In this document: positions 17,922-48,956 of the stretch, one piece after another
Numbering within the stretch: the first letter of the stretch is position 1
How the letters are laid out: each line of letters begins with the position of its first letter
Assembly (NCBI GenBank): GCA_003649205.1
Contig: QMRC01000005.1
Coordinates: 59,821 to 123,820 of the forward strand
Length of the DNA: 64,000 nucleotides
Reading direction: 5' to 3'
Origin: Thermoprotei archaeon
GTDB lineage: Archaea > Thermoproteota > Thermoprotei > Thermoproteales > B15-G16
Notes under the pieces: model-generated
Database searches by the model: none
What the model was told of the DNA's origin: nothing
What the model saw: only the letters and a program-made list of their open reading frames with translations
Position numbers and translations under genes: made by a program

Positions 17922-17922
17922 T

Positions 17923-18225
17923 ATGTGTGGTGGAAATACTGAAGAGTTGAAGCGGAGGATATACGATGCCCTCAAAGATGTTATGGATCCGGAGATAGGT
18001 CTCAACGTTGTGGATGCTGGTTTCATCAAGAATGTACTCGTTGATCAGGAAGGTAATGTCACTGTAGAGATGATCTTAACGACTCCTTTCTGCCCCCTTG
18101 CACACATAATGATTTCTCAGGTAAGGAGAGCTGTGGAGAAGATACCTGGTGTCAAGAGTGTTGATGTCAAGATAGTGGGCTTCGGTATTCCCGAACAACT
18201 TCTTAGAAGACTAGGTTATCGCTAA
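17923..18225 (+). CDS. DUF59/SufT (MIP18-like) metal-sulfur cluster assembly factor
   Basis: ALKDVMDPEIGLNVVDAG and LTTPFCP. True start is probably ATG 17923, after the GGTGAG SD. Confidence 0.9.
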   Translation: MCGGNTEELKRRIYDALKDVMDPEIGLNVVDAGFIKNVLVDQEGNVTVEMILTTPFCPLAHIMISQVRRAVEKIPGVKSVDVKIVGFGIPEQLLRRLGYR

Positions 18226-19181
18226 ATCCTGTACCTCGTTAGGAGTAAGAGCGCTATTGCAGTAGCTAAAACATCCGCTAGTGCACCGGGATTGATACCA
18301 TTATGTGAAGCCCAAGCATCTAAACTCCAGAGCAAGCACATACCAGAGCTAGTAGTAACACCGCCTAATCTCAGTACCTCACATGCTCTCTGTCTAAGCT
18401 CATTAGCTAAATCCTTTCCACGCTTAGCAACAACCAAAGTATCCTCATACCTACTGAGCAGCTCCAGAAATGTCTCCACAACAGCATCATTCCACACACC
18501 AAACCTCTCAACATTCCTACGCAGAAAACACAATGCCACCTGTGTCAGTGGATACCCCTCAACCAATTCCCTTGAAATCAAGTCCCACATGGATGAACAC
18601 AGCAGAACATCATACAGCGTAATACCTCTCTCCCTTAGTAACCTAGCAAAATTGGGATCCCACACATTAGGATGCTCAGAAGTCATGGGTGCTCTCTTTC
18701 TCAAGTACCTCGGTGACGCTACTCTAATAGCTCTATAGAACCACACAGCATCACTCACATCACTGTGCTTCACCAAGGTACATGCGGTACTGATACACTT
18801 ACCAATGTGGAGGAGCCCACATCTACGATATACAAATCCCAATGCCACAGCCAGGGGAACCAGTAGGGTTGCTGTACCTAAATTGGTATTACCTCCTCTA
18901 TGTCGTGACTTACAGGTTCTAACAAGTCTATACACCATGTATCCAAGACCACACCTCATATCCTCTGATGTACTATCTGCTAATCGATATCCTCTGATGA
19001 ATGCTCTATAGAACACCTCAACACTGGCAACCCCACTAATGACGAAGTGCTCAATGCTAGTATCTTCGTGATCCTTCAGTCTATGTACATTACCTGGCTT
19101 CGGAAAAGCAGTAGCCTCTAGTATGGTAGCTGTCGACAAAGCCCATGAACAGAACCAAGCTACCTCTCTAACCTTCATCAA
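18222..19181 (-). CDS. citG: CitG-like triphosphoribosyl-dephospho-CoA synthase family protein (C1-cofactor-cluster type)
   Basis: LE...PKPGNVHR, NTNLG..LL.PL, DTLV..K.G and NPG..AD. Confidence 0.85.
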   Translation of the reverse strand: MMKVREVAWFCSWALSTATILEATAFPKPGNVHRLKDHEDTSIEHFVISGVASVEVFYRAFIRGYRLADSTSEDMRCGLGYMVYRLVRTCKSRHRGGNTNLGTATLLVPLAVALGFVYRRCGLLHIGKCISTACTLVKHSDVSDAVWFYRAIRVASPRYLRKRAPMTSEHPNVWDPNFARLLRERGITLYDVLLCSSMWDLISRELVEGYPLTQVALCFLRRNVERFGVWNDAVVETFLELLSRYEDTLVVAKRGKDLANELRQRACEVLRLGGVTTSSGMCLLWSLDAWASHNGINPGALADVLATAIALLLLTRYRI

Positions 19182-19243
19182 GCTAGATGCACCTGTTTAT
19201 ATTTACAATTTCTCAACGTATTGTAACTTAACTCATCTACGCA

Positions 19244-20041
19244 CTAGGAACTAGACTTCCTGAATTTTGATACTCTTCTAGCAACCATGCTAGCTATGAC
19301 ACCAGCACCTACACCATTGTCGATATTAACGACTGCTACACCGAGGGTACATGATTGTAGCATTGAGAGTATAGCAGCTAAACCCTTGCCGCCCAAACCA
19401 TATCCCACAGATCGTGGAACAGCAATCACTGGAACATCTAGGAAGGATGCGATTACCGAGGGTAATGCACCTTCCATACCAGCAACAACAACTACGATGT
19501 CTGGATCAAACTCCAGTATCTTCCTAATGGCGTAGAGTGCTCTACACATGTTTGCAATACCGACATCGTACACAGTTAATACAGTACATCCCATCTCCTC
19601 AGCAATGACCTTAACCTCCTCAGCAATAGGGATATCAGCTGTACCAGCAGCCACAACAGCTACCCTACCTCCATGTTGCTCCTGTTCGAGATCTTTCCTC
19701 TTCACCACAATAATTCTAGCCTCTTCTCTAACCTCAAGAATGTACCCGAGAGAGCTGAAATCAATTGACTTCAGCACCTTAATATGCTCTGGTTTAACTC
19801 GACTAATGATTACCTTTGGTTCTCCTCTCTTAACGAGGTTTAAGACAATTTCCTTCACGATTTCAGGTGCCTTAGGTTCAGCAAAAACAATTTCAGGTAC
19901 TCCTCTTCTAACATACCTACCAATATCGTAGAGTACGTATCTTGTAACCTCCTCAAATTGATAAAGTTTGATCAGCTTCTCAGCTTCATCTATTGATAAT
20001 TGTCTTGAACGTACTTTCTCAAGTATGCTTCTCAAATCCAT
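19244..20041 (-). CDS. larB: LarB / AIR-carboxylase (PurE)-related protein
   Basis: D..R..R.GVPE, AGTADIPIAEE, DVG, AGMEGALPSV, SVGYG, MLQSC and VNIDNG.GA. Confidence 0.9.
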   Translation of the reverse strand: MDLRSILEKVRSRQLSIDEAEKLIKLYQFEEVTRYVLYDIGRYVRRGVPEIVFAEPKAPEIVKEIVLNLVKRGEPKVIISRVKPEHIKVLKSIDFSSLGYILEVREEARIIVVKRKDLEQEQHGGRVAVVAAGTADIPIAEEVKVIAEEMGCTVLTVYDVGIANMCRALYAIRKILEFDPDIVVVVAGMEGALPSVIASFLDVPVIAVPRSVGYGLGGKGLAAILSMLQSCTLGVAVVNIDNGVGAGVIASMVARRVSKFRKSSS

Positions 20042-20243
20042 AGAGATCCCTACATTGCTTTCACATTGAACTCACTTAGGCTTACCTTTGACTTAGGCTC
20101 AATCTAACTTAATATTACTTTACTCTTACCTCAAAGAGAAGTTCTCTATACCTTGACTTGTTAACTCAGTACATGTGAAGATCTAGACCACATGCTTAAG
20201 CACTTTTAATTTCTCATTCATGAGTTTACTACGGTGATCACTG

Positions 20244-21125
20244 GTGATTATCGGTGTCGTTACGAGGAATCCACATGGATGGGCAACTAAAGAGCTGAGG
20301 AAAGCTATTGAGAAGTTAGGTCACGTACCATTTATCTTCAGATTTCGCGACATTATCGCTGAGGTTGGTTTTCCTGCAAGGGTTTTCGTTAAGGGTTGTG
20401 ATGTGTCATCGTTATCAGCTATCATAGTTAGGCCTATTGGTAGGTGTAGTCTTGAGCAAGCTATCTTTAGGATGGATGTACTTCACTGGATTGAGGATCG
20501 TGGTGTATATGTCGTGAACTCTCCATCAGCTATAGAGATTGCTGTTGATAAGTACAGGACTCTCTACCTTCTCGAGAGAGCTGGTATTCCTGTTCCTAAA
20601 ACCGTAGTTGGTGAATGCTGTGAGGAAGTTCTCAAGTACATCAATGATTTAGGTAAACCTATTGTCGTTAAACCTCTCTTCGGATCGAGAGGTTTAGGTT
20701 CGTTTAGAGTACGTAGTAAGGACTATGCATGGCGGGTTCTGAGCGACTTAGCATTCCTCAAGCACGTGCTGTATGTTCAGGAGTACATTAGACATAGAGG
20801 TCGTGATATTAGAGTTTTCGTTATTGGTGATAGAGCTGTTGCCGCGATGTATCGAGTTGCTAGAAGCTGGAAAACCAATGTTTACTTAGGTGCTAAACCT
20901 ATTAGGTTGTATCCTATTCCTCAGGAGGTTGAGGAGTTAGCGATTAAGTCGTGTAGAGTTGTTGGTTGCGAGATTGCGGGAGTAGATATTGTTGAGGATA
21001 GAGAACGTGGGTACTTAGTTCTTGAGGTAAATAGTCAACCTGGTTGGAGGGGCCTCCAGTCTGTTACTCCATTCTCCATAGCTGAGGAGATAGTGAAGTA
21101 CGTAGTTAGTAGAGTTAGAAGGTAG
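20244..21125 (+). CDS. RimK-family alpha-L-glutamate ligase (MptN/Orf5-like, H4MPT- or furan-modifying)
   Basis: ATP-grasp motifs KPLFGSRG, QEYI, DIRVFV, WKTNV, GVDI and LEVNSQPG. GxxSLEQ..FR.D.L motif; adjacent to mch. Confidence 0.85.
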   Translation: MIIGVVTRNPHGWATKELRKAIEKLGHVPFIFRFRDIIAEVGFPARVFVKGCDVSSLSAIIVRPIGRCSLEQAIFRMDVLHWIEDRGVYVVNSPSAIEIAVDKYRTLYLLERAGIPVPKTVVGECCEEVLKYINDLGKPIVVKPLFGSRGLGSFRVRSKDYAWRVLSDLAFLKHVLYVQEYIRHRGRDIRVFVIGDRAVAAMYRVARSWKTNVYLGAKPIRLYPIPQEVEELAIKSCRVVGCEIAGVDIVEDRERGYLVLEVNSQPGWRGLQSVTPFSIAEEIVKYVVSRVRR

Positions 21126-22100
21126 CTACTTCTCTGGTGTAAATGATAGTGATCTCTTGAGCATGTAGACATCGACTCTACCTGAGTAGAATACTTTGCT
21201 CGTTCTCCTGTTAGTTATCTGCACAAGAGCTACGGCAAATACTGATGGATCTAGCTTGTAGAGGTCGAAGTTAACTTCACTGAATATATCATACATCAAC
21301 CTACCACTATATTTCGAGTTTGTGAATGGTGCTTTCTCGATTATAGCTGCTATCTCAGAGTCATCGCAGTCAACTACGTAGTATGTCTCTCCTCCATACG
21401 CTATCATGTCATTTGTCTTGGCGAACATTAGGTTATAGTTTGGACAGGGTGGTGCTACTGGACATGCTCCAGAGGCTGTAATCACCTTCCTTAAGTCAAA
21501 TCCAAGGTATCTCAGCCTGTACAAACCTGTCTCGACAACTCTAGCACTTACCTGTATCGTTCCGGTCACAGAATTAAATGATGTCACTACAACATAGAGG
21601 TTCTTTGGTGATATACCACAGGCTTCAGCAACCTTAACTAGGACTCTATCTGGTGGTAGTCTATCAGTTTCAAGTACTAGAACTGCTTCATCACTTGTTT
21701 CGTGGTATTGAAACTCCTCATACCACTTCTTCGGCTTTCTAGCAAGTGCCCTAGCAGGACCTGAACCAAGAGCATAGAAGTTCTCATCTGCGATTCTCCA
21801 ACCAGCTAGTTGTGAGAGAAGGCAAGCCTCGATTGGGTAGTCCGTGTAGACTATTACACAGGGGAGTGCTAGCTCATCATACCTTCTTACCGTAAGGTCT
21901 ACACGAGCTAAACCACCTAGACTAATCTTCGACAGCTCTATACCCATGTCCATACTACCCATGGTCTCAACACCAGCATCAACAACAGTAGCACCGCAAG
22001 GATACCTATGGACCTTGACCTTGTATAGATCGGTATTCGACAGAACTCTATCCAATATTCTCAGTGCTAACTTATTCATTGAAATACCCACACCTACCAC
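21126..22100 (-). CDS. mch: Methenyltetrahydromethanopterin cyclohydrolase
   Basis: SMN, VDAG, SQLAGW, ALGSGPARAL, QVSARVVE and TND...YGG. Confidence 0.95.
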   Translation of the reverse strand: MVGVGISMNKLALRILDRVLSNTDLYKVKVHRYPCGATVVDAGVETMGSMDMGIELSKISLGGLARVDLTVRRYDELALPCVIVYTDYPIEACLLSQLAGWRIADENFYALGSGPARALARKPKKWYEEFQYHETSDEAVLVLETDRLPPDRVLVKVAEACGISPKNLYVVVTSFNSVTGTIQVSARVVETGLYRLRYLGFDLRKVITASGACPVAPPCPNYNLMFAKTNDMIAYGGETYYVVDCDDSEIAAIIEKAPFTNSKYSGRLMYDIFSEVNFDLYKLDPSVFAVALVQITNRRTSKVFYSGRVDVYMLKRSLSFTPEK

Positions 22101-22951
22101 CCCAACAGCTCAGTCAGGTACCTCAGGTGACTATTTTTATCCAAGGAAATGAATAACCTCCCACTACAACTAATGTCAGCCATTGCATCTCCTCTCAAAA
22201 GTAGGAATGTTCCTCTATACTCTCTTCCTAACTCCTTAACACGAACCTTCTCAGCTATGGAATCGATGTAGAACGTGGGTACAATATCATCAACCCTACC
22301 TAGAATCACTATTCGACCATCCCTCATGTTTAAGCCAGGATAACCCTTACAATCACCCTCGATAACGATAGTACCACCACGCATATTCACACCAGGTAGA
22401 GCATCTGAAGAACCTTCAACAACTACTACACCACCTCTCATACCTCTACCAACCTCAGCACCAGCTGAACCATGAATTATAATGATACCACCTCTCATAC
22501 CCTTCCCTGGCTTCTCTCCAGGTAATGAAGCACCTACATAATTACCCACATCACCATAAACCTCAATAAAGCCACCACACATGTGTGTACCTAGCCAATC
22601 ACCTACATTACCACGAACAATAACACGACCTCCAGTCATTCCATAGCCTAAGAATGCACCTACATCACCCTCAATGATGACATTACCTCCAGTCATCCTC
22701 CTACAGATCTCTCTAACCTTACTAAAATCACCAACTAAGTGAAGCGTAATCTCTTCAACACTACTAGGTACTGAACCCTGATACTCAATGTCGAATAATT
22801 CGGTTAGAGGTACCTTCTTAGAACCTTCAAGAACGTACACATCAGTAAGTTCTCTAGGTGACTTACCCACAAAGGTATCAGGCCTGAGAACAGAAGCGTA
22901 TACAGGTACCTTGAACAAAGTCCTTGGTTTGACGTAGATTTCAACGACCAT
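22094..22951 (-). CDS. fwdC: Formylmethanofuran dehydrogenase subunit C
   Basis: Repeated G..M.GG.I.I.G beta-helix units (GXGXG domain); located in the fwd operon. Confidence 0.95.
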   Translation of the reverse strand: MVVEIYVKPRTLFKVPVYASVLRPDTFVGKSPRELTDVYVLEGSKKVPLTELFDIEYQGSVPSSVEEITLHLVGDFSKVREICRRMTGGNVIIEGDVGAFLGYGMTGGRVIVRGNVGDWLGTHMCGGFIEVYGDVGNYVGASLPGEKPGKGMRGGIIIIHGSAGAEVGRGMRGGVVVVEGSSDALPGVNMRGGTIVIEGDCKGYPGLNMRDGRIVILGRVDDIVPTFYIDSIAEKVRVKELGREYRGTFLLLRGDAMADISCSGRLFISLDKNSHLRYLTELLGW

Positions 22952-22953
22952 AC

Positions 22954-24666
22954 CTAAACCCTCGAAATTACCTTGACCTCCTTAACACTTCTCAACTCTT
23001 CAATTCTAACCTCGTAAGTACTTAGAGAAACGCTGTACCAACGCTTAAACCATTGCTCAATTTCCGCTTTAACAGATTTTTCGAGATCAGGTGACACAAC
23101 TGGATTAATGTAGTACGTTGAACCATAGATAACTCTCGTGACCTCACCGTCCTTAACAACGACCTCACCACCCTTGATGACGTACTTAGCTCTACGTAGA
23201 GCCTTAATCAACTTCTCGTAATCCCTACTGGGATCTACCTCACGAGGATCAATATCGTAGATAGCTACATCAGCATCAGCACCAACACCTAGATGCCCCT
23301 TAGTCTTCTCTAAACCAAGTAACTTCGCAGGAGCGGCACGTGTAATGATAACAAACTCAGTCCAAGTATACTCCCTATCTATGCTAGGTAAGATGCACTT
23401 CCTCAACCCCCTCTCATTTAGCTTCTTCATAACTTCATCTCTAGCTCTCTTACTCATCAACCAAGCAACGATCCACGGATACCTAGTGAAGGGTCCACCA
23501 TTTGGGTGATCAGTCGATATCACTACCCTCCAAGGATCACGAACGAGGAGAGCAATCTCCAAACCAATACACCACTGAATAGTATTCACGTAACTCTTCT
23601 TACGGTACTTATACGGAACAATACCAGCAGCACACTCACACTCAGCATCTGTACTTGACCACTTCCACTTAGTTAAGTGATATAGTACGTACTCGTAAGG
23701 TGCATCAGCAGTCATCGTCGTCTGTGTACCAAAGATCACTTGACCAAGATCGATACTAACTCTGGGATTCCTATTAATTTCCCTAGCTAACTCCTCACTA
23801 GCACTACGTAGATTACCCCAAGTCTCACCACCATAAGCATTGAACTGAATGTGAGTTATGTGCATGATGGGTCTATCAAGTATAGGGAACTTCTCCGTCA
23901 ACCTAATGGTTTCGAGAGTTGTCTCGTAATTACCTGGAAAGCCAAGTCTATTGCAGTGGATATGAACTTTGTGCGGTATACCCAGTCTAATGCATGCATC
24001 AAGTGTGTACTCGATTATATCTCTCGGCTTAACACCCCAGCCTGGAATCTCATCGTCAAGACTAATCCCTATACCACGACCCCAACCCCAAGCTTCACCA
24101 GCACCTGGATCAACTAACTTAACAGCATATCCCTTAACTGTCCTCAATAGCCAAGCGATGTAGGTAGCTACCTTATCTCTAGCATCTTCGCGAATGAATT
24201 TAAGGATAAACCAATTCGAATCGAAGAGAGGTAGCATGGCCTTGTCCACGTACGGAATGTCGTCAAGCTCCTCGTGTGTATGTCTAGACTTGATAGGTGG
24301 TGAAGCTGGTTCAATAATCATGGTGTAACCCATCCTGATATACCGATACCCAATTACAGTAGTTGATGGTGTTGTTTTACCAGAACCACTATGTCTCCTG
24401 CCTGGAATGTACCTCAGTATGCTAACCCTATGATCTTCAGGTCTCATTACCCTACCTAGGTTAACCTTTGGACCTGCTACGTGAGTGTGCAGATCTATGC
24501 CACCAGGTACAACGAGCATGCCCCTAGCATCTATTACGTAGGCTTCCTTGGGATCCACCTTCTCAGTGGGTACTATCTTACCGTCTTTAATGGCTATATC
24601 CATTACCTCTCCTTCAATACCATTTAGTGGGTCGTACACTACTCCATTCCTAATCAATATCTCCAT
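22954..24666 (-). CDS. fwdA: Formylmethanofuran dehydrogenase subunit A (binuclear amidohydrolase)
   Basis: DLHTHVAGPKVN.GR, RHTHEE, K.V.PG, HIHCN, TMTAD, STDHPNGGPF and KGHLG.GADAD. Confidence 0.97.
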   Translation of the reverse strand: MEILIRNGVVYDPLNGIEGEVMDIAIKDGKIVPTEKVDPKEAYVIDARGMLVVPGGIDLHTHVAGPKVNLGRVMRPEDHRVSILRYIPGRRHSGSGKTTPSTTVIGYRYIRMGYTMIIEPASPPIKSRHTHEELDDIPYVDKAMLPLFDSNWFILKFIREDARDKVATYIAWLLRTVKGYAVKLVDPGAGEAWGWGRGIGISLDDEIPGWGVKPRDIIEYTLDACIRLGIPHKVHIHCNRLGFPGNYETTLETIRLTEKFPILDRPIMHITHIQFNAYGGETWGNLRSASEELAREINRNPRVSIDLGQVIFGTQTTMTADAPYEYVLYHLTKWKWSSTDAECECAAGIVPYKYRKKSYVNTIQWCIGLEIALLVRDPWRVVISTDHPNGGPFTRYPWIVAWLMSKRARDEVMKKLNERGLRKCILPSIDREYTWTEFVIITRAAPAKLLGLEKTKGHLGVGADADVAIYDIDPREVDPSRDYEKLIKALRRAKYVIKGGEVVVKDGEVTRVIYGSTYYINPVVSPDLEKSVKAEIEQWFKRWYSVSLSTYEVRIEELRSVKEVKVISRV

Positions 24667-24670
24667 ACAA

Positions 24671-26377: not shown

Positions 26378-26434
26378 ACATAGGGTTTAAAGGTCAATAA
26401 CTAAATTTTTCAGTTTTCCACGACCATACAGCCA

Positions 26435-27319: not shown

Positions 27320-27321
27320 AA

Positions 27322-28278
27322 TTAGATTTTCTCAAGTAACTTCCTCTCTTCCAACCACTTGAGAGCGTAGTCGAATGATTCTAGTAGTGGTATCCTGTAC
27401 CTTCCCAGCTTTCCACCAAAGTTAACCGATGTTATCTTGATGACACCATTCACCTTGGCTGCTGCTATGGCACCAACACCCATAGCTAGCTTAACGTACT
27501 CCTCCTTAAGTCCATTTATAACAATTTCGTAAACACAGTTCACATTAGGTGGGACCTTAGTGTCAGGTACCTTACCTCTCAGCGTTGGACAGTAGGGGTG
27601 GTTTGTTGATGCAGGTAGCTTCGGATACCTATTTGAACCAACCTTTGAACCTGATCTCACGATACCACCAGGGAATGGACATATGACGTAGGGGCAAAGT
27701 CTCCTAATTGCTCTAACAGCTTCTGTAGCAGCTCTCAATCCTGAATCTAGGTCTCTAGCTAGGATCACAATGTTACCACCAGCAACACCCGAAACAACGC
27801 CAACACTATCCTCAACAATGAACTCACCCTCCATGACAGGTATTCTCCACACAGTTCTACCGTACATAGCATCCTTTACCTCGTAACCATCACCAAACTT
27901 AGCAATAGACTGACCTATCCTAAGTCTCCTCCTCACCTTAGGTAGTCCATCGAAGAGAGCTGTAGTAGGACACGTAAGTACTGTCTGTCCAACTCGAGCA
28001 AGTACCTGCACCTTGAGTTCAGGTATCGATCTGTGGTAGATCTGTATGTAGACTCCTGGTCTCCCATCTGGAGTGCTCTTAGGGGATACTAGCTTCTCTA
28101 TACCTGCTTCAGCAGGGCACGCAATTATCGATGTAGCGAAACCAGTAGCACACCTAGCAGCGGTGAGAGCCCACTTCCTGTCCCTAGCAGTTATCAGTAA
28201 CCTCGTTCCATACATTGGAAATGCTTCAGCAAATGAATCCTCAAGTTTCTTTCTCAGCTCCTCAATCGAGTTCATCAC
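27322..28278 (-). CDS. ftr: Formylmethanofuran:tetrahydromethanopterin formyltransferase
   Basis: DSFAEAF, TGFATSII.CPAEAGI, TPDGRPG, GQ.VLTCPT, FGDG, SGSKVGS, YEIVING and NFGGKLG. Confidence 0.97.
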   Translation of the reverse strand: MMNSIEELRKKLEDSFAEAFPMYGTRLLITARDRKWALTAARCATGFATSIIACPAEAGIEKLVSPKSTPDGRPGVYIQIYHRSIPELKVQVLARVGQTVLTCPTTALFDGLPKVRRRLRIGQSIAKFGDGYEVKDAMYGRTVWRIPVMEGEFIVEDSVGVVSGVAGGNIVILARDLDSGLRAATEAVRAIRRLCPYVICPFPGGIVRSGSKVGSNRYPKLPASTNHPYCPTLRGKVPDTKVPPNVNCVYEIVINGLKEEYVKLAMGVGAIAAAKVNGVIKITSVNFGGKLGRYRIPLLESFDYALKWLEERKLLEKI

Positions 28279-28326
28279 GGGGGTTATTGTTCCTCAAGTT
28301 ATTTAAGCGTTTGAACGGTCTCTCAG

Positions 28327-29355
28327 ATGGGTAACTTCATGGGATTGATTGAGGGTTACTACGTTAAGGTACGTAGTGGTGACATATTCGCAGTAAAGGA
28401 CGTAGTTCAGCCACCAGGTAAGGTCGTTGCTTATCCAAAGTACGTACTTACTCCTAGTGGCTCTAGAATATGTAGAGAGGATGGTGCTAGGTATAGGAAG
28501 GTAGAGACTGTTCCTGAGTTATACCGTGTCCTTTATGAAAGGTACGGAAACTACATTGTGTATGACGTATTTTACGGTAGAGAAGTTCCTGAAATTCCTC
28601 TATCCGATGTGGTTAGGATATATGATCCTCGAGTAAAGCTTCAAGAGTTAATGAAATCTCCACTACAGGATAGTGTAGTCAGGGATGTCGTTGATTTCTG
28701 TAGATTACTCTCTAGGGTAACTCCCACTGATAGTATTGGTGTTTCGGGTTCAGTTCTAGTTTCTTTACATGAAGGTTCATCAGATATTGATGTCGTGGTT
28801 TATGGTCGTGAACATGGGTTCAGAGTGTACGGTTATCTGGAGAACCTAGTTAATGTAAGTACTGATGTTCGGAGATACGATGAGGTTCTACTAAAAAGAC
28901 TGTACATTTCAAGGGGTAGAGAAACTCCAATGGATTTCACGACATTTGTTAGGCATGAGGAGAGACGTGTTCTTGAGGGATTGTTTAGGGGGAGAGAGTA
29001 CTTCATAAGGCTTATTCAGCTACCTAGCGAACTTGATGTAAGATACGGTACTTACGTAGTTCGGAAGCTAGGTACCTGTGTATTGAAGGCTATCGTTGTT
29101 GATGCTAGTGAATCAATATTTACGCCCTGTAGGTACAGGATTAAGGTCATTGAATTCCTAGAGGGTTCTGAGAGGGAGGTTTGTGAGGTATATAGTTTGA
29201 GAGGTAGGTTCTGTGAACTTGCTAGTGAAGGTGATACCGTGATATGTCGTGGTACTCTTGAGGAAGTTCACTACGTAGAGAGTGGAGAAGTTAGGTATAG
29301 AGTGTACCTAGGTGATACAGGAGATTACTTAGTGAATCTAGCACTTAAGTACTGA
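28327..29355 (+). CDS. Pol-beta-fold nucleotidyltransferase, COG1665-like (paralog 1)
   Basis: GVSGS..V.LH...SDIDVVVYG, N-terminal F.VK...PP....Y.KY, and an OB-like C-terminus. Confidence 0.78.
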   Translation: MGNFMGLIEGYYVKVRSGDIFAVKDVVQPPGKVVAYPKYVLTPSGSRICREDGARYRKVETVPELYRVLYERYGNYIVYDVFYGREVPEIPLSDVVRIYDPRVKLQELMKSPLQDSVVRDVVDFCRLLSRVTPTDSIGVSGSVLVSLHEGSSDIDVVVYGREHGFRVYGYLENLVNVSTDVRRYDEVLLKRLYISRGRETPMDFTTFVRHEERRVLEGLFRGREYFIRLIQLPSELDVRYGTYVVRKLGTCVLKAIVVDASESIFTPCRYRIKVIEFLEGSEREVCEVYSLRGRFCELASEGDTVICRGTLEEVHYVESGEVRYRVYLGDTGDYLVNLALKY

Positions 29356-30418
29356 ACCACCTAATAGGTTTGAGGTAGTCCTTACCACCCGCATCAACAC
29401 TACCAACTGTGACTCTGCGGTATACCTCACCACTTGACTTAATCACCTTCTCCAATCTACCAAATACCTCAATCTCCTCACCAGGCTTAGCTAGATCACA
29501 GTACAGTCCCTCATAACACACTACTTCTCGAATATTACTTACCTTAGGTCCCTCAAGAATCCTCACATTACGTACTACGTACTTAGCTGGTAAGAAAATT
29601 GATTCACTATCATCCTCAACCACAGCTCTAATCTTAATCAATCCTTCACCAATGTACCTCTCATCACCATACTTCTCACGTACTTCATGTTCAAGCTTTA
29701 CGGGATGAACTGAGAACTGTCTACCACGGTAGAGAGCTCTATTCCACTTCTCAGAACCATATAGTCGTCGTGCTTCATTTGGTGTAAGTGGGTGTATCTT
29801 TATGATATCTTGAACCCATGCTTCAAGTACTTCTCCTCTAGGTCTCTTAAATGGTGATTTAGGGTCATCGTACAGTTGCAGCAGGGTCTCCTTAACCTTG
29901 AGGGCATTCTCCCTACCATACACAATGATGTCTACATCAGAGTACTTCACATTGTGTATCCGCAACAGAATTGATCCAGTAATACCCATGTACGTAGTGG
30001 AGACACCACTAAACCTCGATAACTCCTCAACTAATTCCTTAGCCAAAGCCTCTAACTCATCTCTAGGCTCTTTCAATATCTCTCTTAACCTCTCCTCAGG
30101 TAAGTAGTGTACCTTGACCCTACTACGTGGAACCTCAATAACTTCAACACCAAGAACTTCGTCATACACCACGTATTCAGGACAGTTCTTTCTCAGGAAA
30201 TCCATGACCGTACTGAAACCAATAGCACTGTAAAACGGTAGTACCCTACCATACATCTTACCATCTCTAGACCACTTAATACGTATCTTAGACTCTACAC
30301 CAGGAACGTACTTGAGGTAACAGATGACTCTATCTGGTGGATGTACATTACCTATTACACAGAATATGTAACCCTCCACACTCTCAATGAAATCTCTATC
30401 ACGGAAGGTAACTCTCAT
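29345..30418 (-). CDS. Pol-beta-fold nucleotidyltransferase, COG1665-like (paralog 2)
   Basis: RDRDFI, HPPDR...YLKY and GITGSILL.IH...SDVDIIVYG. Start set at MRVTF (the ORF track extends to 30469). Confidence 0.8.
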   Translation of the reverse strand: MRVTFRDRDFIESVEGYIFCVIGNVHPPDRVICYLKYVPGVESKIRIKWSRDGKMYGRVLPFYSAIGFSTVMDFLRKNCPEYVVYDEVLGVEVIEVPRSRVKVHYLPEERLREILKEPRDELEALAKELVEELSRFSGVSTTYMGITGSILLRIHNVKYSDVDIIVYGRENALKVKETLLQLYDDPKSPFKRPRGEVLEAWVQDIIKIHPLTPNEARRLYGSEKWNRALYRGRQFSVHPVKLEHEVREKYGDERYIGEGLIKIRAVVEDDSESIFLPAKYVVRNVRILEGPKVSNIREVVCYEGLYCDLAKPGEEIEVFGRLEKVIKSSGEVYRRVTVGSVDAGGKDYLKPIRWFST

Positions 30419-30481
30419 AGAACTCACTGAGGAAGATATTGAGCGCATAAATATATTCCTTAAGACCATGACGAGTAGTAG

Positions 30482-31777
30482 GTGGCTAAGTTGCTGATAT
30501 ACCTAGTAAATCCGCAGGTACCTAGGTCACGAGATGAGGAGAAGAAAGGTCTATACCCACCACTTGGCCTACTCTACATAGCCACAGTACTCAAGGAGAG
30601 AGGATACGAAGTAAAGATATACGAGCTGAACGTAGAGTCATCAAATAAGCTAATTCACGATGTACAGAGAGAGCAACCTGATGTAGTAGGTATAACAGTA
30701 CACACAGTGAGCTTCCCAATAGTGAAGAGCCTCATTAAGGAGCTGAGACAATCATCACCAAGCACCACCATAGTATGTGGTGGTCCACATGCAACACTTT
30801 GTCCAGAAGACTTCATTAACATAGCTGACATAGTTGTGAGAGGTGAAGGTGAGGAAGTAGCTAGAGACCTACCTAATCTACTACATGCAATTAAGGAACT
30901 GAAGACCAGAGCTATGAAGACTACACTAGTGGTTCAGGGAGCTAGTCCGAACATAGATGAGCTACCAATACCTGATAGAGCACTACTCAATACATCGTAC
31001 TATGGTGAGAACATTGGTGTACTCGTAACTAGTAGAGGTTGTCCATTCAATTGCTTATTCTGTTGTGTTCGATACCTCTTCTCTAGAGCTTACAGAGCTA
31101 GATCACCTATGAAGGTGCTACAGGAAGTACTGTACCTAGTAGATAGATTCAATGTACATCGAGTGAAGTTTGTGGATGATGAGTTTACTGTAGTTAGGAG
31201 TAGGGTTCGTGAAATTTGTCAGCTTCTCAAGGAATATGGAGTAGGTGTGACCTGGAGTTTACCCAATGGTATTAGAGTTGATACAGTTGATGAGAGGTTA
31301 CTTAGGGATATGAGTGAAGCTGGTTGTGACTTAGTGTGGTTTGGTATTGAGTCTGGTTCTGAGAGAGTGCTTAAGTACATTAGGAAGGGCATTGATTTGG
31401 AGAAAGCTAGAGGAGTGATTAAGATAGCTAAGGACTACGGTATTAGAGTTGGTGGTTTCTTCATGATAGGAGCACCAGGTGAAACACTTGATGAGTTTAA
31501 GAAGATAATAGACCTAATACCTAAGCTGGATCTAGACTACATACACTTCAGCATAGCAACACCATACCCAAACACTGAGTTCTGGAACTGGGTTCAGGTA
31601 CATGGGAGGTTCATAACACTAGACTACCAGTACTTTGAGAAGACATTCATCTTTGAAACACCTGACTATACGATCAGAGATAGATTGAGAGCTGTAGAGC
31701 TACTAGAGAGAGAACTAGGTTACTACGAGTTAAGTGACGACGTTAAGATCATAGAGGAACTACTTACACGGACCTAA
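30482..31777 (+). CDS. Cobalamin-binding radical SAM protein
   Basis: PPLGLLYIA, GGPHAT, VRGEGE, SRGCPFNCLFC (CxxxCxxC) and GIESGS. Confidence 0.92.
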   Translation: MAKLLIYLVNPQVPRSRDEEKKGLYPPLGLLYIATVLKERGYEVKIYELNVESSNKLIHDVQREQPDVVGITVHTVSFPIVKSLIKELRQSSPSTTIVCGGPHATLCPEDFINIADIVVRGEGEEVARDLPNLLHAIKELKTRAMKTTLVVQGASPNIDELPIPDRALLNTSYYGENIGVLVTSRGCPFNCLFCCVRYLFSRAYRARSPMKVLQEVLYLVDRFNVHRVKFVDDEFTVVRSRVREICQLLKEYGVGVTWSLPNGIRVDTVDERLLRDMSEAGCDLVWFGIESGSERVLKYIRKGIDLEKARGVIKIAKDYGIRVGGFFMIGAPGETLDEFKKIIDLIPKLDLDYIHFSIATPYPNTEFWNWVQVHGRFITLDYQYFEKTFIFETPDYTIRDRLRAVELLERELGYYELSDDVKIIEELLTRT

Positions 31778-31823
31778 AGTACAGGTTCAGGAGACTAACT
31801 AAGTCACGGCTGAGTGGAGCTTC

Positions 31824-32540
31824 ATGAGGGGGAAGGTCATAGTTATCGGCCATAGAGGAGCTCCAAGGTACGAACCTGAGAACACGATACCGAGTTTTCT
31901 GAAGGCGATAGAGCTAGGCGTAGATCTAGTTGAGTGTGATGTGAGGCTCACAAGGGATCTGGTACCTGTGGTCTTTCATGATGAGGATCTAGCAAGACTT
32001 CTAGGAGTGAGGGTTAAGGTACGAGAGCTAACAGTAAGTGAGTTGAAGAGATACAGGATTAGGGGAAGAGAAATACCAACTCTAGAAGAGGTACTCAATG
32101 CACTCAAGTGTAGGTGTGGTCTCATAGTTGAGATCAAGGAGAGGGATTCAGTGGATACAGTACTGAACGTATTGAGGAAGGTAGGAGTACTTGGCTGTGG
32201 AAAGCCAATATACGTAGCTTCCTTCTACCACACAGTAGTTAGGTACGCAACAGAAGTAGAGCCGAGAGTTCGAGGAATAGCTATCATATCCTGTGAACCA
32301 GTTGACCCAGTACACATAGCTAGAGAGGCAGGTGCTGAGATGCTAGCAGTCAGGTACTTGTACATAACGAGAGATCTAGTTGATAAGGCTAAGAGAGCAG
32401 ATGTAAAGGTAATGGCATGGACAGTAAATGACGTAGACGTACTCAGGAGGCTCATAGAGAAAGGAGTAGATGCAGTAGCAACAGACGACCCTAAGCTAGT
32501 AATCAGCTACCTCAAGCACTTAAGTACTCACGAAGAATAA
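31824..32540 (+). CDS. Glycerophosphodiester phosphodiesterase family
   Basis: GHRGA...PENT, ECDVRLTRD, VFHD, VEIK, AWTVND and VATD. Confidence 0.92.
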   Translation: MRGKVIVIGHRGAPRYEPENTIPSFLKAIELGVDLVECDVRLTRDLVPVVFHDEDLARLLGVRVKVRELTVSELKRYRIRGREIPTLEEVLNALKCRCGLIVEIKERDSVDTVLNVLRKVGVLGCGKPIYVASFYHTVVRYATEVEPRVRGIAIISCEPVDPVHIAREAGAEMLAVRYLYITRDLVDKAKRADVKVMAWTVNDVDVLRRLIEKGVDAVATDDPKLVISYLKHLSTHEE

Positions 32541-33165
32541 GGTAACTCCACAGAGAATTAATATTGAGAAAAACATACCTACCAAATAACCTACACACTT
32601 CTTCAGCAGAAACGTAGACAATACCTGGAATTGAACGAACAACATCAGACATAGAGAAAGAGAAACCAAGCAGTAACCTCCTTAACCAAGAACGTAGAAA
32701 ACGAAGAATAGCGGTAGAGTAGCAAGCAACAAAAGGCTCAAGACAACCACAAGACCAAACAGGAACACAAGCAACACCACCACGAGATCTACATTCCTGA
32801 ACTAAGTACCTAAGCAACGCAGAACTAACGAAAGGGTTATCACAGGAAACAACAGCAACAAAGCACTTACCAAGCAAACTCTCAACGAAATCAAGAATAG
32901 AGAACAAGCCAACAACAGGATGACTATACGAATCCAAGACATCACGAATAACAAACCAACGATCAAAACACGAACCAAACCTAGACAAAATATGACGCCA
33001 GAAATCACGCTGATACCCCTCACGAACACAAACCACCAATACATCACAACCACACAATCTCCTCAATAACAAATCAGCAACAGAAAAACCACCAACATCA
33101 AGACAAGCCTTATACACACCCAACCTACTCGAACCACCACCAGCAACAACACCAACAACAAACAT
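32512..33165 (-). CDS. mobA: Molybdenum cofactor guanylyltransferase (MobA-like), compositionally divergent
   Basis: VAGG.SSRLG..KA, VSCDNPFV, EPF.A.Y and FLNIN. Coding strand is extremely G+T-rich. Confidence 0.75.
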   Translation of the reverse strand: MFVVGVVAGGGSSRLGVYKACLDVGGFSVADLLLRRLCGCDVLVVCVREGYQRDFWRHILSRFGSCFDRWFVIRDVLDSYSHPVVGLFSILDFVESLLGKCFVAVVSCDNPFVSSALLRYLVQECRSRGGVACVPVWSCGCLEPFVACYSTAILRFLRSWLRRLLLGFSFSMSDVVRSIPGIVYVSAEEVCRLFGRYVFLNINSLWSYLILREYLSA

Positions 33166-33232
33166 AGTAGCTCAAGGTAAAGAAACCTGAAAACTACAAA
33201 ACAGTTAATCAAGATACCTCAACAATTCAAAC

Positions 33233-33249
33233 ATATAACTGTGTTATAT
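33233..33249. promoter_or_regulatory. Inverted repeat, candidate operator
   Basis: ATATAAC-TGT-GTTATAT in the divergent mobA / DUF2193-like intergenic region. Confidence 0.4.
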
Positions 33250-33379
33250 TTTTCTATCTATAGCACAAAATTAATCGGTATATTTTCTCCTGCACATTTA
33301 ATAGGGTATTCAGGAATAGCTAGCTCATGTACTAACTTATAAGTATGAGTAAAAATTAATTTGTAACGAGGTCGTCCCT

Positions 33380-34948
33380 ATGTCAGTTCCACCAGAGGTT
33401 ATTAAGAAGATGGTTGAGGATGCAATAGCAGTGCAGAGAGCTGACATAGGTGTCATTAAGGAAAAGAGAGGAACAAAATTCACAATACCAGATGCACTAC
33501 CGTACGTAGAAGCAGTAAGGAAGATGGCACCAGTAGGGCCAATGAAGAAAGAGGTCATTGACCTACATGTAAACTCGGTGGTAGCACACTACGAGATACT
33601 GAACGAAATTGCAAAGGATAAGACAATTAGACCAGAAGACGACCCATTTGTAGAACATTACCAGACACCAGTAGTACTGAAGATACTGTATGAACTAGAT
33701 CCAAAGTTCAGAGAAGCAGTAGAGACCTTCGTTAAGGAGCTAGAGAAGAGAAGGGATCTAATTGGTAGAGAAGCAATGAGAAAGTACTGTGGCTTCTACG
33801 GACCAACCTGTGTTGTAGACTTCGCATACTCAGTAGGTGGTATGTCAGGACTCTTCGCCTACATCCTAGAGAAAGTACCAATAGACAAGAAGTACAAAGA
33901 GGCAATACTAGCGGCAAAGAGCTGGGGTATGAACACAAGCTACGGCTTCGGCGCTAAGTTCATATCAGCAATTGAAGCAGGTAAGACACTAGAGGAAGCA
34001 CTCAGCGCAGAGATCGAGATGTTGAAGAAGATCTGGCTAACACCAGTGGAAGCACAGGTAGAGGTGATGAAGGAAGCTGGTCACATTAGCTTTGACCCAG
34101 CAGAGTACATGAAGAGGTATGAGCAGAGGATTAGACCATATGTAAAGGCAGCACTAGATGCTGGTGTGCATCCAGGTAACATCTGTGTGGTACCGGCGTA
34201 CTGTGTTGGTGATGTAGGACACCACATAGCCCAGTCAATGTACAATATGGCGAAGGACGACGTCGTAATGGCGATAATGGAGGCTGTAACAGAGGTTATG
34301 ATATCAACACTAGAGACAGCACTAAAGGAGGGCAAGCTAAAGAGTGAGTATGATGTACTGAGAGTAGCAACAGGTTCAACAGCCGCAGCAGTAGCATACA
34401 TAGCTGAGCAAGACGGCTTCAGCGCATCAATGATAATTGACCTACTAGTGAAGAGGTTCTTCAACCTAGTCCTGAAGTCACCAGCAAGAGGTGTAGCAGC
34501 TGAACTACACAACGTAGACTTCATGGACATGCTACTGAGGGGCTGGAAGATAATTACACCAAAACCATGGGGAAGAGGTGGAGAGGTAATTAAAGGTGTT
34601 AAGGTAGATCTAACACCAATCGAGAAGAATGAAGTACTCAAGAACCCACAGAGATACACCTATCCAGGCTGTGCAATTACAGTGAGGTTCTCAGCACTAA
34701 TGAGATTAGCGGACTTCCCATGCCTACTAACAAGTGAGCCAGTAACAGCAACACTCAACACCTACATCGTAGCACTACGTCCAGAGACCGTGATTTCACC
34801 ACCACCAATATGTAAGAGCTGTGCACCAAGCTTCATACTAACAGGAAGATGTATCCACTGCTACTACAGAAGAGTAATTGCTAAGGAAGTACCACTAGTG
34901 AGTGTCTTTGCAGATGGAGTCCTTGGAGGAGCCGGAGCACTAGGTTAA
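33380..34948 (+). CDS. DUF2193-like protein of unknown function with C-terminal Cys motifs
   Basis: PEDDPFVEHYQTP, GFYGPTCVVDFA, KSWGMNTSYG, YCVGDVGHHI, ELH, CAITVRFS.LMRLADFPCLLTSEP and CxxC..CxxC. Confidence 0.8.
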   Translation: MSVPPEVIKKMVEDAIAVQRADIGVIKEKRGTKFTIPDALPYVEAVRKMAPVGPMKKEVIDLHVNSVVAHYEILNEIAKDKTIRPEDDPFVEHYQTPVVLKILYELDPKFREAVETFVKELEKRRDLIGREAMRKYCGFYGPTCVVDFAYSVGGMSGLFAYILEKVPIDKKYKEAILAAKSWGMNTSYGFGAKFISAIEAGKTLEEALSAEIEMLKKIWLTPVEAQVEVMKEAGHISFDPAEYMKRYEQRIRPYVKAALDAGVHPGNICVVPAYCVGDVGHHIAQSMYNMAKDDVVMAIMEAVTEVMISTLETALKEGKLKSEYDVLRVATGSTAAAVAYIAEQDGFSASMIIDLLVKRFFNLVLKSPARGVAAELHNVDFMDMLLRGWKIITPKPWGRGGEVIKGVKVDLTPIEKNEVLKNPQRYTYPGCAITVRFSALMRLADFPCLLTSEPVTATLNTYIVALRPETVISPPPICKSCAPSFILTGRCIHCYYRRVIAKEVPLVSVFADGVLGGAGALG

Positions 34949-35049
34949 ACGAGAACCATCCTATTAACTCATCCCTATAACCAATCAATTTTTACCAACC
35001 CTTACCTCTCCTTCACGAGAAGAATGGGATTACCTTTACCTAGTCAATA

Positions 35050-35095
35050 ATATGTATATTTATCACTATATATACATATAGAGACTTATATAAAC
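35050..35095 (+). promoter_or_regulatory. 10-bp perfect inverted repeat just upstream of the TATA box of the aquaporin gene
   Basis: ATATGTATAT-N10-ATATACATAT (35050-35079), followed by TTATATAAA (35087-35095) upstream of the start. Confidence 0.55.
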
Positions 35096-35122
35096 CCCCA
35101 ATACGCTACAACTACGGGGAAG

Positions 35123-35854
35123 GTGGGCGGTATGGCCGCTAAGAGTCAACCAACCATAGCACAGATGTTCATATCAGAGCTCATTGGTACCTTTGCACTA
35201 ACATTCTTCGGTGCTGGATCGGTGATATCTTTCCCAGCAGTAATGGGGCCAGGACCAGCAGCACTATTTGCTATTGGTGCTACTTTCGGTTTCATTATTG
35301 CAATAATGATATACGCTACAGGTCACATTTCAGGGACTCATATTAATCCATCAGTAACAATTGGTTTACTAGCCGTTAGGAGATTTCCAGGTAAGCTAGT
35401 TGCACCATACATAGTAGCTCAGTGTATTGGTGGTATTCTAGCTGGTCTATGCCTATATGCATGCTACCCAGTAGCAGGTAGAAAAGTGCACTTCGGCTCA
35501 ACACTACCGAACTACACCCTAGGTGTTACAGATGGTGCTGCTGTACTGATTGAGATTTTACTAACTTTCTGGCTACTTTTCGTGATCATGGGTACTGCTG
35601 TTGACAAGAGAGCACCACCAGGATGGGCTGGTTTCGCAATAGGTTTCACTGTTGCATGTGATATCTGGGTGGGCGGTCCACTAACAGGTTCAAGTCTTAA
35701 CTTCGCTAGATCACTAGGACCTGCTATTGCAGCAGCCATTGCAGGTGACTTCATACCATTAGCAAAGCTGTGGATTTACTTGGTAGGTCCAATTATTGGT
35801 GGTGTACTCGGAGCTGTAATCTACGAGTACTGCTTCAAACCAGCAAGATCGTAG
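35123..35854 (+). CDS. MIP/aquaporin family channel (AqpM-like)
   Basis: ELIGTF, ISGTHINPSV, EILLTF and TGSSLNFARS, with six TM helices. Confidence 0.93.
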   Translation: MGGMAAKSQPTIAQMFISELIGTFALTFFGAGSVISFPAVMGPGPAALFAIGATFGFIIAIMIYATGHISGTHINPSVTIGLLAVRRFPGKLVAPYIVAQCIGGILAGLCLYACYPVAGRKVHFGSTLPNYTLGVTDGAAVLIEILLTFWLLFVIMGTAVDKRAPPGWAGFAIGFTVACDIWVGGPLTGSSLNFARSLGPAIAAAIAGDFIPLAKLWIYLVGPIIGGVLGAVIYEYCFKPARS

Positions 35855-45889: not shown

Positions 45890-45899
45890 GGTGCAAGTC

Positions 45900-48724: not shown

Positions 48725-48956
48725 GACCCCCACCGAGTACTTAGTTAACAATCTGTTACTGTAGTTTTAAAGGTAGTGAATTTAGAGCTTATGTACACTA
48801 CGAGTATACTCAAGGAATCTTTAACTACTTAAAGTCTATTACTGCACTATTCCTGCTCAAGCATCTATTTCAATATGTTTCGGTCATGCTATTGTGAGGA
48901 AGTATTTTAAGTGAGGATCATTGTGATTTTGGTGACTGCATAGTAATGGTGATGGT

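Follow-up and report, generated by a model that had tools for sequence, protein, structure and literature searches.

A stretch of 64,000 nucleotides from a Thermoprotei archaeon (GenBank assembly GCA_003649205.1, contig QMRC01000005.1, positions 59,821 to 123,820 of the forward strand; here called the window) contains a cluster of fwd, ftr and mch genes, the products of which interconvert CO2 and methenyl-tetrahydromethanopterin (methenyl-H4MPT). The cluster raises two questions: whether it is a one-carbon module sufficient to itself, as an initial annotation of the sequence had proposed, or a section of a longer pathway, and what is contributed by the genes around it, several of which have no assigned role. 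We find that the island at 18222-30469 encodes the upper methyl branch (FwdABCD, Ftr and Mch) of a complete H4MPT-dependent Wood-Ljungdahl pathway, the rest of which lies on other contigs of the same genome. On a wider reading, which we consider probable, four families of partner genes in this island finish the side chains of the one-carbon cofactors, and the block of genes downstream is unrelated to them.

Genes were assigned from an open reading frame (ORF) map of the window followed by Pfam and NCBIfam scans of the translated ORFs, and every gene named in the initial annotation was found where that annotation had placed it. The genes of the island are:

18222-19181, minus strand: CitG-like protein, orf7 type (PF01874, 209.9 bits, full length)
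19244-20041, minus strand: LarB, a PurE-like carboxylase/hydrolase (NF033503, 228.8 bits, cut-off 175)
20244-21125, plus strand: RimK-family ATP-grasp protein of the MptN/Orf5(MyfB) type (TIGR00768, 222.5 bits, cut-off 143.4)
21126-22100, minus strand: Mch, methenyl-H4MPT cyclohydrolase (TIGR03120, 339.4 bits, cut-off 228.8)
22094-22951, minus strand: FwdC (TIGR03122, 229.7 bits, cut-off 130.65)
22954-24666, minus strand: FwdA, amidohydrolase subunit (TIGR03121, 756.7 bits, cut-off 392.75)
24671-26377, minus strand: FwdD-FwdB fusion, molybdo/tungstopterin subunit (TIGR03129, 528.2 bits, cut-off 327.8, residues 143-562)
26435-27319, minus strand: CofE-like ligase (PF01996, 49.6 bits, cut-off 25)
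27322-28278, minus strand: Ftr, formylmethanofuran:H4MPT formyltransferase (TIGR03119, 395.9 bits, cut-off 292.6)
28327-29355, plus strand: putative nucleotidyltransferase paralogue A, 342 amino acids (motif, paralogy with B)
29345-30469, minus strand: putative nucleotidyltransferase paralogue B, 374 amino acids (motif, predicted palm domain)

The upper branch of a Wood-Ljungdahl pathway

The genes for Ftr, the CofE-like protein, the FwdD-FwdB fusion, FwdA, FwdC and Mch lie on a single strand (minus) with intergenic gaps of -7 to 57 bp, and look like one operon. The MptN-like ATP-grasp gene on the plus strand abuts mch tail to tail, and the convergent nucleotidyltransferase ORFs A and B lie on the side of ftr away from mch. 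FwdA, FwdB, FwdC, Ftr and Mch all score above the curated NCBIfam equivalog cut-offs. The FwdD model spans residues 1-122 of the fusion at 126.5 bits, against an exception-model cut-off of 175, and PF01568 matches at 62.7 bits. The FwdB part of the translation keeps the cysteine cluster CPFCGCVC...C, which we take to be an Fe-S motif, and the Cys-His sequence VFCHGP, presumably the active-site motif of a true dehydrogenase; the retention of both points to a dehydrogenase rather than the hydrolytic Fhc.

Pfam scans of the window's selected ORFs of at least 90 amino acids found no member of the Mtd, Hmd, Mer, Fae, Mtr, Mcr or Cdh families, in agreement with the initial annotation. Several of these functions are encoded elsewhere in the genome that holds the window (2.07 Mb, 31 contigs, 93.8% complete, 4.2% contaminated). 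Mer is found at C2:170818-171780 (458 bits), and beside it on the same contig are CdhA (Prismane), CdhC, CdhD, a CooC-like ATPase, an FrhB-like protein and CofD, together with canonical CofE (274.9 bits) and an ADP-forming acetyl-CoA synthetase (ACD); a 476-amino-acid ORF between CdhD and the CooC-like gene lay outside the scan for subunits of carbon monoxide dehydrogenase/acetyl-CoA synthase (CODH/ACS). Contig C1 (L089:9299-18557) encodes an MtrH-family methyltransferase, a corrinoid (B12-binding) protein, three URO-D/MtaA-type methyltransferases, an MFS transporter and a RACo-type activase, a cluster that we take to resemble methoxy- or methyl-compound:H4MPT methyltransferase systems. Contig C6 (L088:9107-10069, minus strand) encodes a 320-amino-acid protein combining the N-terminal domain of MtdA/MtdB (Mpt_N, 79.6-82.7 bits) with a Rossmann domain, and the reaction of Mtd may be carried out here by an NAD(P) dehydrogenase of bacterial type. 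HypD and a HypE-like gene are found near the C6 gene. MfnB and a TIGR03123 protein (Orf9/MfnF type) adjoin each other on contig C14, outside the island. The pathway-bearing contigs match the window's contig in composition, with a GC content of 0.431-0.440 and correlations of tetranucleotide usage (r) of 0.957-0.989.

The search of the genome for one-carbon genes recovered Mer, Cdh and MfnB/MfnF, and gave no match in this 93.8%-complete assembly to F420-dependent Mtd (PF01993), FolD, Fae or McrA (PF02249). At this completeness the absence of McrA is likely, not proven, and the view that the module is non-methanogenic stands as far as these data reach. Because the rest of the H4MPT Wood-Ljungdahl pathway lies on other contigs, the proposal that the module is self-contained does not. 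Methyl groups would enter the pathway at methyl-H4MPT, part of them being oxidised to CO2 via the operon and part condensed to acetyl-CoA, and the pathway could also run reductively.

The island adds to a known class, the fwd-ftr-mch clusters of non-methanogenic Wood-Ljungdahl archaea. Operons of this kind in Bathyarchaeia and Korarchaeia specify the same enzymes with the same Mer and CODH/ACS partners, and likewise lack Mcr; the H4MPT Wood-Ljungdahl pathway has been reported in several Thermoproteota lineages (PMC10667645; papers are given by PubMed Central (PMC) identifier). Unlike those operons, the one described here has a CofE-like gene embedded between ftr and fwdDB, FwdD fused to FwdB, an MtdA/B-type protein in place of Mtd, and a host order in which the 28 other sampled genomes lack Ftr. 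Similarity also extends to the 'archaeal-like' one-carbon islands of methylotrophs (mch-orf5-orf7, fhcCDAB), where Mch is likewise found together with an Orf5/MptN-type and an Orf7/CitG-type protein. In contrast to these, the present island keeps the FwdB motifs of a dehydrogenase rather than Fhc, is accompanied by no detectable Fae in the genome, and adds the nucleotidyltransferase pair and the CofE-like gene.

The operon itself is an ordinary archaeal one-carbon cluster; of interest are the lineage of its host, the apparent replacement of Mtd by an MtdA/B-type protein and the presence of a CofE-like gene within it. It also shows that the full H4MPT Wood-Ljungdahl pathway occurs in an order from whose other sampled members it is missing. 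The prolyl-tRNA synthetase encoded in the window has as its top named matches 'Thermoprotei archaeon' metagenome-assembled genomes (MAGs; 62-66% identity), followed lower down by Culexmicrobium, Geothermarchaeota, Vulcanisaeta (58%), Nezhaarchaeota and Thermoproteus tenax (57%), which agrees with the crenarchaeal type of genome assigned initially. The kinship table holds 28 sampled order-mates from two families, mostly closed genomes of about 2 Mb, and in none of them were Ftr, CofE, the CofE-like, CitG-like or nucleotidyltransferase families or β-ribofuranosylaminobenzene 5′-phosphate (RFAP) synthase found. The host accordingly represents an uncultured lineage of Thermoprotei, and its order-mates, as sampled, are without the whole system. 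Recent import of the island was considered and rejected, because its GC content (0.43-0.44) is not distinct from that across the window (0.41-0.47); the argument covers recent, not older, transfer.

Gene families linked to the operon

The main value of the locus is the four candidate partner families, which can be tested with purified proteins. Gene order was compared at loci found with a profile of CofE-like homologues in species-representative genomes; the best 80 of 355 confirmed matches, with flanks of up to 10 kb, were searched with the window's 22 proteins by tblastn (E 1e-8, at least half of the query covered). Ftr was matched in 18 of these 80 loci, the MptN-like protein and FwdDB in 15 each, FwdA in 13, FwdC in 12 and Mch in 10, while the CitG-like protein and either nucleotidyltransferase were each matched in nine. 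The two nucleotidyltransferase queries cross-match, and clustering leaves eight loci with one or both paralogues. The order MptN-like / Mch-FwdC-FwdA-FwdDB-Ftr / CofE-like recurs in loci from Nezhaarchaeota, Bathyarchaeia, Thermosphaera, Methanomethylicia, Ignisphaera and Desulfurococcaceae. The most similar of the best 80, locus L029 from an unclassified Thermoproteota MAG, holds both nucleotidyltransferases, the CofE-like and MptN-like genes, the Fwd genes, Mch and Ftr (67% identical). Presence and absence were counted in 251 Thermoproteota genomes, each at least 80% complete, the same set serving for every family except DUF2193 (160 genomes).

Conserved linkage or co-occurrence holds for the CofE-like, CitG-like and MptN-like genes and for the two nucleotidyltransferases. 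It is unsupported for LarB and for the downstream genes encoding a B12-binding radical SAM enzyme, a glycerophosphodiester phosphodiesterase (GDPD), a MobA-like protein, a DUF2193 protein and a MIP channel, so that the association of partner genes with one-carbon metabolism proposed in the initial annotation survives for the first group and fails for the second. That annotation had named as refuting evidence a complete Wood-Ljungdahl or methanogenesis pathway elsewhere in the genome together with accessory genes that show no conserved linkage to ftr and mch; half of this was found, in that the rest of the Wood-Ljungdahl pathway does occur elsewhere, and some of the accessory genes do show conserved linkage.

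By sequence and distribution, the CofE-like protein is a member of a paralogue family distinct from the F420:glutamate ligase CofE, with a phyletic pattern that tracks Ftr and not coenzyme F420. It satisfies the Pfam superfamily model alone, scoring 25.5 bits against the CofE equivalog TIGR01916 (cut-off 180.65), and has 25% identity to the genome's own CofE, with 13 invariant residues in common; members of its family are 34-41% identical to it. The predicted structure (predicted local distance difference test score, pLDDT, 86.9) matched CofE chains only in Foldseek (2phn, E 8.4e-9, TM 0.49-0.60), with no other fold below E 0.5, and among PDB sequences a profile of the family scores no more than 36 bits against CofE. 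A helical insertion occupies approximately residues 66-134. We preferred the longer ORF start because the 270-amino-acid form would remove an invariant Tyr-Trp-x-Pro.

The CofE-like family profile matches 62 of the 251 genomes and Ftr is found in 65, with both in 62, Ftr only in three, the CofE-like gene only in none and neither in 186. The CofE superfamily as a whole (PF01996) is much wider, being present in 180 genomes; 118 of these lack the CofE-like paralogue, among them all 36 of family f6. Canonical CofE accompanies the paralogue in 59 of these 62. The remaining three (G178, G226 and G231, 94-99% complete), each from a different family, keep the paralogue and Ftr with both CofE and CofD unfound, and may run the Fwd-Ftr-Mch steps without F420. 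Such a pattern speaks against the paralogue being a second F420 ligase and favours a substrate connected with Ftr, namely H4MPT or methanofuran. Furthermore, the CofE-like gene and ftr have been gained or lost jointly within families f8 (both in the same one of 11 genomes, G178), f27 (one of two), f28 (three of four) and f41, and within genus g99 (G226 against G202).

In the 80 best loci, the CofE-like gene is directly adjacent (within 300 bp) to the MptN-like gene, the CitG-like gene and ftr in seven loci each, and to thyX in 22. The thyX neighbours belong to Bathyarchaeia (loci L023-L086), where the CofE-like gene lies directly 3′ of thyX on the same strand (22 loci) and directly 5′ of the ACD gene (22 loci); most Bathyarchaeia loci have it beside ThyX and ACD and not Ftr, with Mtd, Mer and Cdh genes sometimes near. 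In the window's genome it is canonical CofE, not the paralogue, that adjoins ACD (C2:172088-174442).

The MptN-like ATP-grasp protein scores 264.2 bits against the MptN_Meth model NF040720 (cut-off 350) and 106 bits against the CofF model. Related enzymes are known from bacteria, in which the methylofuran glutamate ligases are the ATP-grasp proteins MyfA and MyfB, Orf5 being MyfB (PMC8141765).

The CitG-like protein is a full-length family member that falls well below the CitG/MdcB equivalogs (46-55 bits, cut-offs 272-282; the best is 55.2 against 282). CitX gave no match in the genome (MdcG and acyl carrier proteins were not searched), and four archaeal control genomes likewise have a CitG-like gene with CitX unfound. 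The two ORFs called nucleotidyltransferases in the initial annotation have no Pfam or NCBIfam match at 1e-3, and score 18.6 and 13.7 bits against PF01909, below its cut-off of 21; they are related to each other (32% identity, E 5e-33). The assignment is nevertheless upheld, at the level of a superfamily and with the help of a predicted structure. The signature of DNA polymerase beta (Pol-beta)-type nucleotidyltransferases, G[ST]GS...SD[IV]D, is present, with G162, G165, S166, S177, D178 and D180 invariant in 12 sequences, and the model of paralogue B (pLDDT 89.7) has a predicted palm domain that resembles the terminal uridylyltransferase TUT7 (8oef; Z 8.4, root-mean-square deviation 2.7 Å over 85 residues). 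In a VIA structure search the palm matched TUT7, TUT1 and GLD-2 at Z 6.7-8.4, and a C-terminal oligonucleotide/oligosaccharide-binding (OB) fold matched single-stranded-DNA-binding protein, the MCM N-terminal domain and the anticodon-binding domain of AsnRS/AspRS at Z 6.6-8.3, values that lie in the range flagged by the tool as common. A Foldseek comparison of the paralogue B model with the PDB yielded nothing at E ≤0.001, residues 27-122, which form the N-terminal domain, could be assigned to no fold, and a PDB sequence search with both proteins gave no useful match. Residues 1-20 of the model are disordered; translation probably starts at residue 18 (position 30418), where the Atlas record also begins. 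Homologues of paralogue B with 54-61% identity occur in loci of Ignisphaera, Methanomethylicia and unclassified Thermoproteota, and in the Atlas the family is 53-98% archaeal and consists of hypothetical proteins only.

The CitG-like and nucleotidyltransferase families follow each other closely through the 251 genomes (totals 114 and 115): of the 124 genomes with either, 105 have both, 10 the nucleotidyltransferase only and nine the CitG-like gene only, which leaves 127 with neither. They lie within 5 kb of each other in at least 30 of the 85 genomes listing both, in many at less than 300 bp, and the nucleotidyltransferase paralogues are adjacent in at least 40 of 57 genomes. The match with Ftr is looser (both 59, nucleotidyltransferase only 56, Ftr only 6, neither 130). 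RFAP synthase (TIGR00144, counted at E 1e-20) is present in 92 genomes. Among the 186 without Ftr, it is found in 63 and the CitG-like or nucleotidyltransferase genes also in 63, with 61 genomes common to both sets. A Sulfolobus control genome likewise has a CitG-like gene together with RFAP synthase. The nucleotidyltransferase family is missing from all 28 order-mates and from all 36 genomes of family f6. These families thus follow RFAP synthase and not Ftr, as would suit a function in building the side chain shared by such pterins, and one that would extend to lineages with modified folates but without a one-carbon pathway. In methylotrophic bacteria, mch, orf5 and orf7 are clustered (PMC3615186).

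Candidate roles in cofactor synthesis and their alternatives

To our knowledge, several steps of methanopterin side-chain synthesis and of archaeal methanofuran glutamylation still have no assigned enzyme. A gene inventory of 2011 estimated that about seven proteins per cofactor were unknown (PMC3087415). No paper proposing the roles considered below was found in the literature searched, which comprised open-access text only, with most subscription journals outside it, and the accessible portions of PMC8498797, PMC8305020, PMC6787355 and PMC9635834 hold nothing on these genes.

Considering gene order and phyletic pattern together, we propose the following scheme. CitG makes an alpha-linked 5-triphosphoribosyl adduct from ATP on dephospho-CoA, displacing adenine, and CitX and MdcG, which are Pol-beta-type transferases, join the alpha-phosphate of the adduct to a hydroxyl with release of pyrophosphate; both the two-step chemistry and the transferase class of CitX/MdcG were reportedly described by Hoenke et al. 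in 2000. In the first step of the scheme, the CitG-like protein would transfer a 5-triphospho-alpha-ribosyl group from ATP to the pterin precursor, at its ribityl end, again displacing adenine. The nucleotidyltransferase pair, acting in the manner of CitX/MdcG, would then attach 2-hydroxyglutarate, through its hydroxyl, to the alpha-phosphate, with pyrophosphate as the leaving group. Finally, the CofE-like and MptN-like ligases would add one or more glutamates to the tail of H4MPT or, as the less favoured option, to methanofuran, paralleling the action of CofE and CofF on F420. H4MPT is preferred as the substrate of the CofE-like protein because the neighbours of its gene include the CitG-like gene and thyX, and because H4MPT ends in a phospho-2-hydroxyglutarate that resembles the phospholactate terminus of F420-0.

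The scheme departs in several respects from the systems on which it is modelled. As in the CitG/CitX (MdcB/MdcG) system, a protein of the CitG family goes together with a nucleotidyltransferase of the Pol-beta type across genomes; unlike that system, no equivalog cut-off is reached, CitX is unfound, the putative transferases are 340-375 amino acids long and carry an additional domain at the N terminus as well as an OB fold, and the proposed acceptor is a small hydroxy acid and not an acyl carrier protein. The CofE-like protein shares the fold and invariant residues of CofE and is paired with a RimK-family ATP-grasp protein, as CofE is with CofF, yet it differs in its low identity, its helical insertion and a distribution that follows Ftr. 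If the scheme is correct, the logic of CitG/CitX, by way of a triphosphoribosyl intermediate, has been reused for a soluble cofactor, and would be at work in every archaeon that derives its pterins from RFAP, among them Sulfolobaceae-like lineages without a one-carbon pathway. In its full form, with the CitG-like protein and nucleotidyltransferases as the long-missing enzymes of the alpha-ribosyl-5-phosphate/2-hydroxyglutarate segment and the CofE-like protein as a non-F420 glutamyl ligase acting on H4MPT or methanofuran, it is a tentative proposal, and we would put it no higher than a reasonable possibility.

A number of observations weigh against it. The functional roles rest wholly on gene order and co-occurrence among related, non-independent genomes, so that the counts overstate independence, and the family survey covers Thermoproteota, with the H4MPT-making euryarchaeal methanogens outside it. 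In the window the CitG-like gene lies 9.2 kb from the nucleotidyltransferase pair. White reportedly proposed in 1996 that PRPP (phosphoribosyl pyrophosphate), not ATP, is the ribosyl donor. The OB fold and uridylyltransferase-like palm predicted for paralogue B would also fit an RNA substrate, and the co-occurrence of the CofE-like gene with Ftr fits H4MPT and methanofuran equally, such that the two substrates are not separable on this evidence. Lastly, the sole TIGR00144 match in the genome is a mevalonate kinase, and RFAP synthase is detected in just 29 of the 65 Ftr-bearing genomes; the failure to find it here leaves the pterin pathway of this genome, as it is understood, incomplete. In lineages of this kind the arylamine moiety of H4MPT may be the product of another enzyme, either divergent in sequence or not homologous at all.

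Other explanations of the same data can be set against these proposals. A self-contained, non-methanogenic formyl or formaldehyde module with its own tailoring and uptake genes, and no remaining Wood-Ljungdahl pathway, would account for the families missing from the window and for the failure to find McrA, F420-type Mtd, FolD and Fae in the genome, and the three Ftr-bearing relatives without CofE and CofD suggest that truncated versions may exist elsewhere. For the present genome we regard it as very improbable, given Mer, CdhA/C/D, MtrH and the MtdA/B-type dehydrogenase on compositionally matching contigs, MfnB and MfnF outside the island, and DUF2193 and MIP genes that are not tied to Ftr. 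The CofE-like protein might instead be a second F420:glutamate ligase that tunes the length of the F420 tail, with the ATP-grasp protein serving as CofF. Its superfamily and fold, the F420-dependent Mer in the genome, the retention of CofE alongside most copies of the paralogue and the CofF match of the ATP-grasp protein all speak for this; we think it unlikely, since the paralogue and Ftr persist in three families in genomes where CofE and CofD are unfound, the superfamily is often present without the paralogue, the equivalog score is far below its cut-off and the ATP-grasp protein matches MptN much better than CofF.

The nucleotidyltransferases, and perhaps the CitG-like protein too, could alternatively modify RNA or tRNA, their proximity to one-carbon genes being incidental. 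The nearest structural matches of the palm, the OB fold and the presence of the family in 56 genomes without Ftr are what would be expected of such enzymes, and this view has some claim to attention, although we doubt it. The Z values involved are commonplace, the family is missing from whole groups of genomes, it overlaps almost completely with RFAP synthase where Ftr is lacking, and it lies beside the CitG-like gene in many genomes, with homologues also beside the CofE-like and MptN-like genes; orf7, the bacterial counterpart of the CitG-like gene, clusters with H4MPT genes (PMC3615186). A more general objection is that both co-occurrence and gene order reflect shared ancestry in a few large clades, such as Bathyarchaeia, and not function. 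The genomes are indeed related, with many of the positives in families f13, f15, f20, f31 and f35, and most Bathyarchaeia loci do not place the CofE-like gene by Ftr. Joint switching of presence and absence inside f8, f27, f28 and g99, the recurrence of the gene order in six differently named lineages and the lack of all these genes from 28 sampled order-mates are difficult to reconcile with ancestry as the whole explanation, and we judge it unlikely to suffice.

LarB, the downstream block and other genes of the window

LarB is a neighbour without a conserved tie to the one-carbon genes. It was matched in none of the 80 best CofE-like loci, and its distribution over the 251 genomes (107 in total) does not follow that of Ftr: both 37, LarB only 70, Ftr only 28, neither 116. 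In the window larB lies 62 bp from the CitG-like gene, and in five genomes of family f35 (G147, G154, G179, G185 and G221) some 230-270 bp separate it from a gene of the nucleotidyltransferase family.

Beyond the nucleotidyltransferases, the block at 30482-35854 is outside the one-carbon system and its genes are neighbours only:

30482-31777, plus strand: B12-binding radical SAM enzyme (PF02310 and PF04055)
31824-32540, plus strand: GDPD (PF03009, 151 bits)
32512-33165, minus strand: MobA-like nucleoside triphosphate transferase (PF12804, 64.5 bits)
33380-34948, plus strand: DUF2193 Fe-S protein (PF09959, 736.8 bits)
35123-35854, plus strand: MIP/aquaporin-type channel (PF00230, 171.6 bits; TIGR00861, 171.7 bits)

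GDPD, the MobA-like protein and MIP were each matched in none of the 80 best CofE-like loci, and DUF2193 and the radical SAM enzyme in one each, the latter at 30% identity. The radical SAM enzyme falls below the cut-offs of all NCBIfam equivalogs, and a role as a pterin methylase, which we considered, is unsupported given its presence in one of the 80 loci. The gene annotated as mobA does encode a PF12804 member, which scores 60 bits against the MobA equivalog (cut-off 164); it possibly makes the guanine dinucleotide cofactor of FwdB.

The DUF2193 and MIP genes had been taken as uptake genes of the module. They are better described as an independent pair of an Fe-S protein and a channel, DUF2193 being found in one of the 160 genomes sampled in the phylum, namely the genome that holds the window. 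In L029 no MIP match was found, although the DUF2193 copy (69% identical) sits inside the one-carbon cluster. Proteins of this family bind a [4Fe-4S] cluster, and in methanogens a MIP or porin gene adjoins 91% of the DUF2193 genes, with no link to one-carbon metabolism described for the pair in the accessible text (PMC12375889). As in methanogens, the protein in the window is full length with four C-terminal cysteines, and the MIP gene starts 174 bp 3′ of it. It differs in its rarity in the host phylum and in its motif, CKSC-x6-T-x2-C-x2-C (CX2CX6TX2CX2C), in which T replaces the published D.

Several further genes of the window deserve mention. A seryl-tRNA-synthetase-like protein is encoded at 45891-47435 (plus strand), with a tRNA_bind_4 N-terminal domain (122 bits), a domain that Pfam associates with the unusual SerRS of methanogens. 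At 48272-49847 an AsnC/Lrp regulator adjoins another ATP-grasp gene of the RimK type (125 bits), which is probably of the LysX/ArgX type and unrelated to the island. Two family-B DNA polymerase genes (56404-59046 and 61396-63771, both on the minus strand) are less than 2.4 kb apart, with M24 peptidase and Toprim-domain genes between them. At 17511-18225, the YjbQ (UPF0047) and DUF59/Fe-S-assembly ORFs overlap by 125 bp as listed, and the latter probably starts further downstream; a homologue of the YjbQ protein, at 56% identity, is also found in locus L083.

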